DNA of 64,000 nt. Source: an uncultured Actinomycetota bacterium. Its GTDB lineage: Bacteria; Actinomycetota; Actinomycetes; Mycobacteriales; Mycobacteriaceae. The notes beneath the pieces are model-generated. The model saw only the letters and a list, made by a program, of their open reading frames with translations, was not told the origin of the DNA and searched no databases. Within the stretch, counting starts at the first letter, position 1, and each line of letters starts with the position of its first letter. This document shows positions 15,087-22,734 of the stretch, one piece after another. The position numbers and the translations under genes were made by a program. Location of the stretch: assembly GCA_963781685.1 (NCBI GenBank), contig CAWAGK010000017.1, positions 108,110 to 172,109 on the forward strand, in the 5' to 3' direction.

Positions 15087-15123
15087 GGTTACAAACCAAG
15101 CGACTTGGCGATGATCACCTTCA
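15087..15123 (+). repeat. att site copy 1 (displaced 3' end of the acyl-CoA dehydrogenase gene)
   Basis: ACAAACCAAGCGACTTGGCGATGATCACCTTCA (15091-15123) identical to 22702-22734; minus strand encodes KVIIAKSLGL-TAA. Confidence 0.92.
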
Positions 15124-15292
15124 ACATCATCCTGGGCGTTGGTACCCGAAAACTGTGTTGGCTATTCGATAAACCCCCTGCTCAGACTGTTGGGCGCGTT
15201 GATCGCCGGAAGATGCCCGAAATTCTGCTGCGGACGATCTGCGGACGGTCCGGGGCGACGGCGCGGACCCGGCCGCCGATACCGTCCGATGG

Positions 15293-15508
15293 TCATGGCC
15301 GACACCGACACCGACGCGGGCGGTTTCGCCTCAGGAAATCATCGAGGTCTTCCGCTTGGACGAAGGAGCGGCGGCCGATCTTAACGAGCGACAATTCGCC
15401 TCCCTTGACCAGCGCGTAGAACGTGGTGGGGCTGATGCCGCCCAGTTGCTGCCGGGCCTCCTTGAGGTCGCGCAATGCCTTCGCGAGCCGCTCAGCGGCG
15501 TCGCTCAT
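15293..15508 (-). CDS. Excisionase-like helix-turn-helix protein
   Basis: LKEARQQLGGISPTTFYALVKGGELSLVKIGRRSFV is a MerR/Xis-type winged helix; located at the element end. Confidence 0.75.
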   Translation of the reverse strand: MSDAAERLAKALRDLKEARQQLGGISPTTFYALVKGGELSLVKIGRRSFVQAEDLDDFLRRNRPRRCRCRP

Positions 15509-15717
15509 CGCTGCCGTCTCGGTTCATCAGTACGTTGAAACGTGTTGCGATCCAACCATTCCAAGACGTCGCGCCATCGGTACAGCACCCGGCTGCCGCG
15601 CTTAATGAACTTCGGGCCGGTGCCCTTATAGCGATCCTGGGCGAGCGCGGCGGTAGTGGTGTGGAGATACGTGGCGACTTCGGCGGGCGTCGCCAGTGAC
15701 GGTAGTTGATCAGACAT
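15505..15717 (-). CDS. AlpA/HTH_17-like DNA-binding protein
   Basis: LATPAEVATYLHTTTAALAQDRYKGTGPKFIKRGSRVLYRWRDVLEWL; stop overlaps the next ATG. Confidence 0.85.
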   Translation of the reverse strand: MSDQLPSLATPAEVATYLHTTTAALAQDRYKGTGPKFIKRGSRVLYRWRDVLEWLDRNTFQRTDEPRRQR

Positions 15718-15953
15718 GACCGGCGATCGTACCCAGCTCAAGGTCGAGCCCTTGTCAGGATTGAACTCTCCTGATGGGCCTCAGGGGGAGCGTCAAAAGC
15801 CCTCTTAACAGGCATAATTCATCTCTACTGATCACTACAGATATCTGTAACTAAGGCCAAATTGTGGGCAATGTGGGCGGCGCTCAACTACAACCGCATT
15901 GATCCCGAGCGCGAGGTTTGTAGCCCAAGTGGAGCACCTCATGCAGCATGTCG

Positions 15954-16334
15954 TCACCGTGCATTGCCCGGAGCCGCCGGGCTCGTGGGACTCGTTGGGG
16001 TCGTAGGATTCGTTGAGCTCACAGGGCTCTTAGGACTCAGAGGGCTCGTAGGGCTCGTAGGGCTCGTAGGACTCGTGGGCGTGGGACTCGCAAGGCCTGG
16101 GCCTTCGCCACACCAGTCCGCCACATCTTTCGGGTACTGCTCGAGCGGTAGAGGACAACGCTGCCCCGGCGGGAAATTGGCGCCGGCGTTGAGCAGATCG
16201 CAGGGAACATAGACCTGCTTGCCTTTGGGGGTGTTGGTCAAACACTGTGTCGGAGGCTGGGCATGAGCCTGAACAGGGACGATGATCGCCACCGCCACAG
16301 CACCGAGCACCGACACAAGACGGCGACAAGTCAT
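15954..16334 (-). CDS. Putative secreted protein with Ser/Pro/Thr-repeat tail
   Basis: Signal peptide ending AHA|Q, four Cys in the mature part, (SPT)n tail. Confidence 0.7.
15978..16092. repeat. Degenerate 9-bp tandem repeat (about 12 units, GGGCTCGTA consensus)
   Basis: Three perfect GGGCTCGTA units near 16042-16068 with degenerate flanks; encodes the SPT repeats. Confidence 0.85.
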
Positions 16335-16491
16335 GAGAACTCCTCTTGAGGAGTAAATCTAGAGATCCTTCAGGATGCAAATGTCGACGCAGCCGCCACA
16401 CGGCGCATACGCACGAAGGCAGCCAAGGGCACGCGCCTACCACGTTCACCGGGGCGGAGCTTGACGTGGTACGCGGCCAAAGGAGAAAAGC

Positions 16492-16992
16492 GTGAATAGA
16501 GGTCTCGATGAAGTATTCCCGCCGACACCGGAAGTGTGGGCTGAGCTAGCCCAGCACGAGATGGCGGGTGATCACCAGTTCGGCAAGGCTGTCCGGTTCT
16601 TAGAAGAGGGTGGCACCGACCGGAATCTCCTCGCGGAGCGATTGGGCATCAAAGTTGACTATGCCGACTGGCTGCTGAATCACGCCCGGAAGATGAAGCG
16701 CGGGACTATCCGCGTCGTAGTTAGTGAGAAAAACGACGGTCGGGAGACGGCAAGTAACCAGGCTCACCACTACCGCTACGTGTTGGACGACGACCTCACC
16801 CCTGAAACCCGGCACTATGTGGAAGCGGTTATAGCGAAATTCCGAACCGTCAACCCTGACATCCCGATAACGGCGGCGAATGCTCAAGGTGCTCATGACT
16901 CCTACGAGCGAGAAATTAGGTCCGAGCCGGCCCTATGCACCAACCCTGATTGTGAATGGGCCTGGACGCGCCACGGTGGCGAATGCTCGTAA
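16492..16992 (+). CDS. Hypothetical protein with C-terminal Cys/His cluster (CTNPDC-x6-HGGEC)
   Basis: RBS AAAGGAG before the GTG; 166-aa ORF; AT-richer codon usage than the backbone. Confidence 0.75.
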   Translation: MNRGLDEVFPPTPEVWAELAQHEMAGDHQFGKAVRFLEEGGTDRNLLAERLGIKVDYADWLLNHARKMKRGTIRVVVSEKNDGRETASNQAHHYRYVLDDDLTPETRHYVEAVIAKFRTVNPDIPITAANAQGAHDSYEREIRSEPALCTNPDCEWAWTRHGGECS

Positions 16993-20263: not shown

Positions 20264-20549
20264 CGCCAGCTCCTCTGTTCACCGCGGCTCAACGCTAAAC
20301 CGGTCCGGCGTCAACCGGCGCTGATTTCACATCTCCCGGTTTGTCTACCGGCTACGCGCGGCACGCGGTCGCTGCGGTCATCAGACCCTCCGCCGCTTCC
20401 GGCCCCCGGTTTCCCGGTTTCTCCAGCATAGAGCGCTAGGCGCTCCGCAGAAGAGGTTCGATCAGGTCGCTGTCAGCGGCATGTCTTGCACGTCAAGGGG
20501 ACCTGTCGCTGCTGCCCGCCTCCTCGGCTCTTTGCGGCGGCTAGCGACG

Positions 20550-21284
20550 TTAATCCGTCGCGTCGGGCGCCTTTCCCGCCGATGAGGCCCCGGGGGCGCC
20601 GAAGCTGATGACTTCGCCCCGATTGATCGATACCCAGTCGCGAGCCTCCACATAAGGGCGGAAGGTCTCGGCGATCAGCTGCTCGTCGTCACGGGTCTTC
20701 GGCCGCTGGAGCTCGTAGAGGTGAGGGAACTCCGTCCAGGCGACGACGGCGTCCCAGAGCCGCAGGGCCGCCTGCCCGGTGGGCGGATCGAGGAGGACCG
20801 GCCCGAAGAGGCACTGCCCATCGGGAAAGAACATCGTCGGCACCCCGTAGCCGCCGGCGTCGACCACCCGCTGGTGCTCGGCCATCACCTCGTCGCTGGT
20901 GGTGGGATCGGCCATCGCCTGGTCGACGAGCCCCGGGTCGAAGCCCAGTTCCTCGAGGAGGTGCTGGGCGACGGCCTTCTCGTGCGGCTTGTGTCCGTCG
21001 ACGTGCAGAGCCCGGCCGGCCCGGCCGTACCATGCGTCGAGGTCGGCCATCGACTTCCGGCGCAGCAGGGCCCCGATGCGCATCATCGACCAGCCGTAGG
21101 ACCACTCCCGCTCCCACGGGTGCTTCTTGCCCTCCTGGCGGTTGATCTCCTCGAGGCTGAAGAAGCGCCAGTTCACCGTAAGCCCGGTCAGGTCGCGCAC
21201 CTCGCGGATCCACAGCGACGTCTGGTACGCGTAGGGGCACATGACGTCGAAGTGGAAGTCGACGGACTCGGGGCGACTCGTCAC
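20550..21284 (-). CDS. DsbA/thioredoxin-fold protein (Rv2466c-like) with single-Cys motif
   Basis: [20 protein letters not shown]; GTG at 21284 overlaps the upstream stop. Confidence 0.8.
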
Positions 21285-22099
21285 ATTGTGAACCTGAGGT
21301 TGCGCGCGGCCCGCTCGCCGAGCTGAGCGTCGCCGTTCCACTCGATCGCGCCGGAGTCGATCGCGACCTGGGGATCGATGCGTCCGCAGGCGAGCTGGAT
21401 GAACGTCGTCGAGTCGCTCATGATCTCGACGTCGGGGTTCTCTAGGCGGTCGACCTGCTTGGCTCGGCCGTCGACGAGGACGTCGAGCTCGCGAACGATC
21501 GGTCCTGTGAGGTGGAAGGCGATGCTCTTCCCGTCGGGCAAGCCCACCTTCTTACCGACGATATAGCCCAGCGAACTCTCCACCTCGCCCAGCGCGATCT
21601 CAGCGGCTACCCCCGTGTCTTCGACCACCCGGGCGAGCGGGGTCGTGATGTCGCGCTCGTGGACCCAGAAGTCGAAGACCCGGATTGCCAGGAATCGCCC
21701 GTAGGTGCCGGGGCCCGTCGGCATCCACGAGGGGCGCTCGAGATCCCCACTCGAGAGCGAGGCCAGATCCTGCCGCCGGCGGTCGTAGGTCGCGCGGACC
21801 CGTTCGACGAAGGCTGCGCTGTCGAGACCGGCGGTCTCGCGCAGGAAGTCTCCGGCCCGCTCGAAGGGGGGCGGCGTCCGAGCGTCCCCAGGCAGCCAGC
21901 CGGCCATGACCGCTTCCATGCTGGTGACGTGGTTGACCACGTCACGGACCTTCCAGTCCGGGCAGAGGGATTGGACCTGCCACTCGGCGTCGCCCAGGTC
22001 GGCGCAGAGTGCTTCCATCGAGGAGTAGCACCCCTCGAGGGCGACAGGGATCTCGCCGAGGCTCCTCATCGCCCACCCGCTACCGCCTGCAGCCGTCAT
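21281..22099 (-). CDS. Mycothiol-dependent maleylpyruvate-isomerase-family (DinB-like) protein with SCP2-like C-terminus
   Basis: [25 protein letters not shown]; the start may be 22069. Confidence 0.85.
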
Positions 22100-22279
22100 C
22101 CAAGCATCTTAAGTCAGGAACTGGAGCTATCCCGCTGCTGCGGGACGCGCTCGGCGAAGGCGTGCATTTCAAACCGCTGCGGCCCTCAAACAGACCGGAA
22201 TATCACCAGCATCGATGAGCTTCACGGACTTGTTGGTGAGACTGGGAACGAATTGCTGCGTCTTGGCGAGGGACTGGAG

Positions 22280-22668
22280 GCCGATCCCGATCCCTCGCGA
22301 GCTGACGCTGCTACCGGCCGCATCGGTGCAGCGTTACCCGTCCGAGTGGATGGTGACCGACGGTGCCGGAGGGTCGTGTCCACCACGTGCGATCGAGCGC
22401 GCGGTCGTCCGCGCCCGCGCGAAGGTCGACGGCCTGCCGGCGGGCTTCACCTTTCACGACCTGCGCCACTACCTGGCGTCGCTGCTGATTGCGTCCGGGG
22501 CGGACATCAAGACGGTCCAGGCGCGGCTGCGGCACGCCAGCGCGTCGACGACGCTAGGACACCTACGGGCACCTGTGGCCGGACGCTGACGAGTCCACCA
22601 GGGCAGCTGTCGGGGCGGCGATCCGCACCCGGATCGGAACTGCTGCGGACGCACTGCGGACGAATTGA
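22280..22668 (+). pseudogene. C-terminal remnant of tyrosine integrase (frameshifted)
   Basis: FHDLRHYLASLLIASGADIKTVQARLRHASASTTL, then an extra G at 22557, then DTYGHLWPDADESTR...LRTN* in the next frame; N-terminal two-thirds absent; left boundary approximate. Confidence 0.9.
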
Positions 22669-22697
22669 CCTCTCAGCGGTACTACGCTGCAGGTCAG

Positions 22698-22734
22698 GGT
22701 CACAAACCAAGCGACTTGGCGATGATCACCTTCA
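22698..22734 (+). repeat. att site copy 2 (current 3' end of the acyl-CoA dehydrogenase)
   Basis: 36/37 identical to 15087-15123; the only difference is stop codon TGA vs TAA. Confidence 0.92.

Follow-up and report, generated by a model that had tools for sequence, protein, structure and literature searches.

The DNA considered here, termed the window throughout, is a stretch of 64,000 nt from contig CAWAGK010000017.1 of an uncultured member of the Mycobacteriaceae, and its principal feature is a 7.6 kb island with an acyl-CoA dehydrogenase (ACAD) gene on one side and a gene for a TetR-family regulator on the other. The ACAD gene (22700..23848, minus strand), which is preceded by a thiolase gene, is intact, and encodes a 382 aa protein with all three ACAD domains. 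The regulator gene (14400..15038, minus strand; Pfam TetR_N, 4e-14) forms the chromosomal flank on the opposite side. Enclosing the island are two identical copies of the 33-mer ACAAACCAAGCGACTTGGCGATGATCACCTTCA, at 15091-15123 and 22702-22734, which extend with their flanks to a repeat of 38 identical positions out of 40 (15087-15126 versus 22698-22737). No third match at three or fewer mismatches is present in the window, and none was returned from 100 dinucleotide-preserving shuffles, such that the perfect direct repeat reported in the original prediction, which was made from the letters of this DNA and their open reading frames (ORFs), is indeed a unique pair here. As that prediction also had it, the 33-mer corresponds to the end of the dehydrogenase, being the reverse complement of its final 11 codons (MKVIIAKSLGL) together with the first base of the stop codon.

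The two copies are distinguished by the stop codons that accompany them. At the integrase-proximal att site (22698..22737; perfect core 22702-22734), which is the present 3′ end of the ACAD gene, the stop codon is TGA, and at every occupied site compared the ACAD gene likewise ends in TGA and is followed by the same element sequence. At the integrase-distal att site (15087..15126; perfect core 15091-15123) the codon is TAA (15088-15090, minus strand), and the sequence beyond it is the native intergenic DNA that is common to sites without an island. Stop codons and flanking sequence together indicate that the new gene end was supplied by the element and that the native end, with its original TAA, was displaced to the far junction. 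Regeneration of the gene upon integration, as first proposed, is therefore upheld, with the encoded protein being unchanged.

With regard to the site prior to insertion, a survey of ACAD relatives (80 loci, one genome per species) revealed empty sites in the three closest relatives, L002, L004 and L005, whose ACAD is 95-97 % identical to that of the window. In each, the ACAD gene directly abuts the TetR gene, which begins approximately 65-100 bp past the ACAD stop codon, and a single core is present. Some 25 further mycobacterial loci show the same order of ACAD, TetR, hypothetical and P450 genes with one core, and the same genes lie beyond 15087 in the window. A second copy of the core, which would have counted against the original prediction, was not found at any insert-free locus of the survey. 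The window itself stems from a soil Mycobacterium metagenome-assembled genome (MAG), and a contig from the ENA (L001), 99.97 % identical to it, bears the same island. Other inserts between the ACAD and TetR genes (in L006, L008, L018, L023, L025, L028, L057 and others) were considered and set aside as unrelated differences in gene content, as they display neither the repeat nor an integrase of the family described below.

Adjacent to the proximal repeat lies the remnant of a tyrosine integrase gene (22280..22668, plus strand), which matches Pfam Phage_integrase at 1.6e-9 and contains the motifs FHDLRH, LRHAS and LDTYGH. Its end at 22668 falls 33 bp before the core and 29 bp before the extended repeat, in keeping with the earlier description of an integrase remnant close to one repeat. 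The remnant corresponds to residues 239-366 of the 366 aa integrase of a related element, L003; it retains HxxR, H and Y, and has lost residues 1-238, including the first catalytic Arg (within GLRISE) and the Lys, so that the catalytic residues (R, K, HxxR, H/W, Y), complete in L003, are no longer all present. No further integrase of this family occurs elsewhere in the window. In the window assembly the remnant carries a 1 bp frameshift at around 22557, which is not found in L001. Single-base indels relative to L001 are located at 18421 and 22557, and these may be homopolymer assembly errors.

At the opposite end of the island are the two small helix-turn-helix (HTH) genes, of the Xis/AlpA type, that had been noted there previously, both on the minus strand. 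The first, xis1 (15293..15508), encodes a 71 aa HTH_17 protein of the excisionase family of DNA-binding proteins (Pfam HTH_17, 9.8e-8; PHROG excisionase), which falls below the cut-off for the NCBIfam 'excise' domain. The second, xis2 (15505..15741), encodes a 78 aa AlpA/Xis-like HTH protein and is a putative directionality factor. It matches a profile built from the integrase-adjacent HTH genes of the wider integrase family at 3e-29, and is, besides the integrase, the only protein of the island in common with family members that target glnA, wherein its homologues adjoin the integrase gene, usually divergently.

Intact integrases beside the same 33-mer, for which a search had been suggested, were found in L003, a Mycobacterium MAG whose ACAD is 98 % identical to that of the window, and in L093, a metagenome contig with the same integrase/ACAD junction and an integrase 98 % identical. 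The L003 integrase is a 366 aa ORF that matches both Pfam and PHROG integrase profiles, and its stop codon lies 30 bp from that of the ACAD gene. A second core is situated 6.5 kb away in L003 with one mismatch, the distal and proximal copies differing at core position 29, which suggests that the crossover occurs 5′ of that base. A further metagenome contig, L161, has the same junction with an integrase truncated at another point, and a cargo of a BTAD-FHA regulator and a Ser/Thr kinase. Across four independent sequences, the spacing from integrase to repeat is identical to the base.

Similarity between the DNA of the window and L003 elements is confined to their two ends, namely the final 389 bp of the integrase gene together with the spacer, and 168 bp inside the distal core. 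The L003 cargo is wholly different, comprising a cyclic nucleotide monophosphate-binding/ribbon-helix-helix protein, a glucose-methanol-choline oxidoreductase and a fatty-acid desaturase, and L003 has no xis2-like gene. The element ends are 97.3-97.4 % identical between the two (94.6 % at third codon positions of the integrase), compared with 93.4 % for the flanking ACAD gene (82.5 % at third codon positions), 86.2 % for TetR and 90.5 % for P450. As the ends are more alike than the flanks, they are younger than the split of the hosts and must have arrived horizontally.

Both ends also harbour short repeated motifs. The distal element arm (15124..15291), which is 97 % identical to that of L003 over aligned bases with one indel, contains CGTTGG-type repeats and a pair of TGCGGAC copies 11 bp apart (15229..15246, plus strand), and is recognizable in elements at other targets (L100, L156 and L140). 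A second TGCGGAC pair (22644..22661, plus strand) lies inside the 3′ coding end of the integrase gene, with its copies in different reading frames, and the motif CAGGTCAG (22690..22697, plus strand) is positioned between the integrase stop codon and the core, where it occurs exactly or nearly exactly in most family members. The window contains exactly two TGCGGAC-N4-TGCGGAC pairs, against 0.07 expected. When arms were compared for ten elements with both repeats located (targets ACAD, glnA, DUF190 and one intergenic), all ten displayed a TGCGGAC pair on the integrase side at -90/-79 from the proximal repeat. In the far arm, between +117 and +157 relative to the distal repeat, a pair or triplet is present in eight of the ten, with a single copy in L114 and none in L156, a 2.1 kb remnant. 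The copies at both arm positions share one orientation. TGCGGAC repeats are present even in the 3′ coding end of the integrase gene of L166, which encodes a protein only 32 % identical to that of L003; this, and the occurrence of the copies in different frames, implies that conservation acts at the level of DNA. It is plausible, from these patterns, that TGCGGAC and CGTTGG, as well as CAGGTCAG, represent arm-type and accessory binding sites. L166 itself (L166:1-1600; IMG/VR uncultivated virus genome 2698536440), a predicted provirus of 10.8 kb located via the arm-site pattern, also possesses a divergent xis2-like gene, and as it keeps both this gene and the repeats, the arm-site module predates the family studied here.

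The extent of that family was revealed by scanning metagenomes with the L003 integrase as query, which returned 80 loci at 52-98 % identity. No tRNA lies beside the integrase in any of these. Instead, in 41 of 80 (52-78 % identity), the integrase gene converges with glnA, its stop codon lying 6-50 bp from the glnA 3′ end, with the target gene encoding approximately 475 aa, ending in ...RPHP(Y/H)EF.LYYD(V/I), and being confirmed as glutamine synthetase by Pfam. Repeats of 24-43 bp, copies of the end of glnA, delimit elements of 5.5-10.3 kb; the metagenome and IMG/VR loci L082-L162 contain such elements, for example L098:5606-11104, L112:99-9060 and L149:836-11099. Other targets include the 3′ end of a secretory lipase gene and the 5′ end of a DUF190 gene. 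In a rough neighbour-joining tree, calculated without support values, the glnA target extends through most of the family, with ACAD, lipase and a few unassigned targets within one derived branch. The ACAD target is thus a narrow, derived branch, and glnA is the usual target of the family. A search of IMG/VR with the integrase identified two loci only. No description of a glnA-end element family was found in the literature searched, and in full-text literature searches neither ACAD nor glnA turned up as an attB reported for Actinobacteria. The island of the window belongs to a family of small actinobacterial elements (~5-11 kb) that has so far not been described and of which most members target the 3′ end of glnA.

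Taken together, the segment 15091-22734 is very probably a decayed site-specific integrative island at the 3′ end of an ACAD gene, which arrived by way of the element's own integrase, is now non-autonomous, and is a member of the glnA-type family. By this account, the attP of a circular element, carrying a 33 bp copy of the last 11 ACAD codons, would have recombined with the gene end, the reaction being performed by a lambda-type tyrosine integrase encoded by the element, as its anatomy suggests. The element copy, with TGA, would then finish the gene, and the native end, with TAA, would be moved 7.6 kb to the TetR side, leaving the protein as it was. The integrase probably recognizes the core along with arm sites formed by the two TGCGGAC pairs, of which one is contained in the 3′ end of the integrase gene itself and the second lies ~140 bp in from the far end; excision is probably directed by xis2, the AlpA/Xis-like HTH protein. 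Later decay removed the 5′ two-thirds of the integrase gene, and left an interior that reads as a patchwork of three intact mycothiol/redox-type cargo genes, mobilome genes of unassigned function and three gene fragments. Lacking integrase residues 1-238, the island cannot integrate or excise by itself, and in this sense of being non-autonomous the original label of 'immobilised' is accurate. Both att sites with their arms, and the xis genes as well, have survived intact, and for this reason the island might be movable in trans by a related integrase.

Several observations weigh against this account. The xis genes of the window are at the far end from the integrase, unlike those of the glnA-type relatives; from this it appears that the interior of the island has been rearranged. 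The proposed binding role of TGCGGAC, CGTTGG and CAGGTCAG is drawn from conservation, no attP was seen for an ACAD-type element, and all ACAD-site copies derive from MAGs or metagenome contigs, with none from cultured strains. Excision, a circle or restoration of attB was not seen in public metagenome contigs, which are too short and mosaic to show one; four soil metagenome runs hold 29-34 % of the words of the region, and their contigs gave no attB/attP joint and confirmed breakpoints at 18320 and 22280. Finally, the interior contains an unexplained fragment of approximately 60 bp (18682..18742, minus strand) from the C-terminal coding end of another ACAD gene (...IYDGTRKVMK; ...QQYADARVSQIYDGTRKVMK), in which homology halts 5 bp into the core sequence. 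It abuts the start of a truncated methyltransferase gene and shows 75-78 % DNA identity to all orthologues, with no closer donor among the 36 compared. The fragment may be a relic of an older junction. Tandem integration was rejected as its origin, as a middle att site would carry the element arm at this position and not the body of the gene.

With regard to the class of element, the original prediction favoured a satellite or phage-inducible chromosomal island (PICI), and this label is plausible for the family as a whole, given the morphogenesis genes of its distant glnA-targeting members, and finds no counterpart in the gene content of the ACAD-site copies. Relatives with integrases 52-70 % identical and the same arm sites measure 5.5-11.5 kb, too small for phages. 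Amongst the glnA-type elements, a major capsid protein is encoded by L098, L112 and L162, with a homologue of the L098 capsid protein in L114, and further phage-like genes include a head maturation protease (L162), a large terminase (L149), an AAA_25 ATPase (L112 and L149) and a repressor. In Mycobacterium, candidate PICIs that combine an integrase with a capsid gene have, in addition, already been reported (PMC10654092). That the island is the remnant of a capsid-forming satellite of this type, once packaged by a helper and with its morphogenesis and replication genes since replaced by cargo, is a genuine possibility, although on balance an unlikely one. No capsid, protease, terminase or replication gene, nor any detectable fragment thereof, is present in the ACAD-site cargo of the window, L003 or L161, and L003, with its integrase intact and an att site at either end, has a cargo made up solely of metabolic and regulatory genes. 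A helper phage or packaging has been shown for no member of the family.

Travel by conjugation, as a mobilizable integrative element akin to the integrative and conjugative elements of actinomycetes or their mobilizable relatives, is improbable. Among such elements, pSAM2 and SLP1 target tRNA genes and encode Rep and FtsK-like Tra proteins. The window island resembles them in its actinobacterial host, integrase/xis module, small size and target-regenerating att repeats, and variable metabolic cargo would also suit this mode of transfer, as would the AAA_25 ATPase and the DUF3854/DUF3631 protein carried by relatives, which we take to be plasmid- or primase-type replication genes. In the window itself no replication module (primase/helicase) was found, these candidates being restricted to relatives. 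Unlike pSAM2 and SLP1, the attB here is the 3′ end of an ACAD gene and not a tRNA gene. Neither the window island nor L003 or L161 yielded a transfer protein of the FtsK/SpoIIIE type, a relaxase or a Rep, and several relatives encode capsid genes instead.

Less probable still, and indeed highly unlikely, is an origin as a temperate prophage of full size that has since lost nearly its whole genome, with the island as its stump. The integrase, excisionase-like genes and att repeats would fit such an origin, and PHROG integrase and excisionase profiles do match. Set against this, the best integrase in a collection of 50,697 isolated-phage records is 32 % identical, all bounded relatives are of 2-10 kb and have no tail or lysis genes, a 28 nt part of the core is absent from IMG/VR, and Pfam and PHROG scans of the window island returned no virion structural genes. 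That the repeat arose without any integrase, through a transposon target-site duplication or local duplication with the integrase fragment as a bystander, is effectively refuted by the integrase position, fixed to the base relative to the repeat in all four sequences, by the arm motifs at conserved distances from both repeats, by the same architecture at glnA, and by relatives that have other inserts at this junction without the repeat.

The interior of the integrative island is, in terms of composition and content, heterogeneous. Next to the xis genes lies a gene (15954..16334, minus strand; called in L001) for a hypothetical secreted protein with a Pro/Thr/Ser repeat tail, which resides in a low-GC part (58-60 %) and has no family match. 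It is followed by a gene (16492..16992, plus strand) for a conserved mycobacterial protein of 166 aa, of unassigned function, with 57 homologues at 67-89 % identity. Elsewhere this protein is encoded beside restriction-modification and helicase genes, and not with the integrase of this family (contexts L164 and L165, with homologues at L164:10001-10501 and L165:10001-10504). In Mycobacterium sp. JS623 the homologue sits beside a type I restriction-modification system, an ApeA-like gene and a resolvase, and in another genome beside giant SNF2/helicase genes, company that resembles a defence island. A 100 aa protein (17043..17345, minus strand) has a weak C-terminal HTH match (Pfam HTH_23, 2.7e-4, below the cut-off; phrog_2342, 4.9e-5). 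For the ORFs within 15954-18003, scans against Pfam, PHROG and NCBIfam gave nothing usable.

Beyond these, an N-terminal fragment of an S-adenosylmethionine methyltransferase gene (18251..18670, minus strand), within which metagenome contigs diverge at 18320, and an N-terminal fragment of a short-chain dehydrogenase gene (18936..19172, minus strand; recognized by translation and by a weak adh_short match of the L001 gene call) precede the three intact cargo genes, all of which are on the minus strand and display host-like GC. These encode an Rv2258c-like methyltransferase with a winged-HTH domain (19211..20263), an Rv2466c-like DsbA-fold mycothiol-dependent reductase (20550..21341) and a protein of the mycothiol maleylpyruvate-isomerase family, of DinB type (21281..22099).

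On the chromosomal side, a palindrome with 19 bp arms (TCGTCCAACCAACCAACTG / CAGTAGGTTGGTTGGACGA) at 15015-15058 overlaps the start of the TetR ORF and is conserved in the empty-site relatives. This is probably a TetR operator, which is now parted from the ACAD gene by the island. Elsewhere in the window, ARAGORN calls a tRNA-Asp with an ATC anticodon at 3138-3211; across the whole window Rfam returned no match at gathering score, tRNA included, and the call is probably false. The segment 10250-11750, with 56-58 % GC compared to a genome value of ~65 % and an ORF of 277 aa (10485-11318, minus strand), is possibly another foreign segment.

The type of element described here is well known, with phage 21 and e14 at icd, SGI1 at trmE, the dusA islands and PICIs all providing examples. 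The lambdoid phage 21 and the e14 element employ a tyrosine integrase at the 3′ end of a metabolic gene, icd of Escherichia coli, and carry a substitute gene end. As with these, the gene in the window stays intact and the displaced native end is found at the far junction; the window island differs in host phylum, integrase lineage and target gene, and in a duplication of only 33 bp that encodes an identical peptide. A closer parallel in terms of size and host is offered by capsid-forming PICIs (de Sousa et al. 2023, PMC10085698) and by the candidate PICIs of Mycobacterium (Abad et al. 2023, PMC10654092), for which the tyrosine-integrase examples shown use tRNA genes. The glnA-type relatives are likewise small, integrase-bearing actinobacterial islands, some with their own capsid gene. 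Unlike the candidates of PMC10654092, however, their family has protein-coding targets (glnA, ACAD and a lipase gene), and the copy in the window is without a capsid or replication gene. Integrases specific for dusA insert at the 5′ end of that gene in proteobacteria (PMC4482086), and SGI1 inserts at the 3′ end of trmE (PMC8409611). The likeness here is that a clade of integrases is associated with a single conserved protein-coding gene and with highly variable cargo, some such elements being non-autonomous and moved by helpers. Those elements are proteobacterial, though, with integrases that are unrelated at the level tested, and, unlike them, the family of the window has switched among several targets with its arm sites kept.

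Viewed by itself, the island is an ordinary decayed genomic islet, and it is the family-level picture that adds value, in which glnA is the principal target, the arm sites are conserved and the target has been switched. One broader extrapolation, offered as a doubtful conjecture, is that the integrase/arm module defines a large, undescribed family of actinobacterial hitchers, many of them capsid-forming, which would use the same arm sites, some of them lying within the integrase coding sequence, whilst the core retargets from the 3′ end of glnA to further conserved genes, ACAD and a lipase gene among them. The ACAD-site copies would then be complementary half-elements, each with both att sites, the window copy having xis but no integrase and the L003 copy an integrase but no xis; each would act as a cargo carrier that is still moved in trans from one soil mycobacterium to another. 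In practical terms, the L003 integrase, the 33 bp core and the mapped arm motifs form a candidate non-tRNA attB/integrase pair for mycobacteria, which could become a non-disrupting integration vector. The changes in core specificity, between glnA, ACAD, lipase and the 5′ end of DUF190, against a background of retained arm sites, offer a natural system for the evolution of target specificity. The capsid genes of the glnA-targeting relatives, furthermore, suggest that phage-satellite-like elements occur commonly in the Actinobacteria of soil, from which few are on record.

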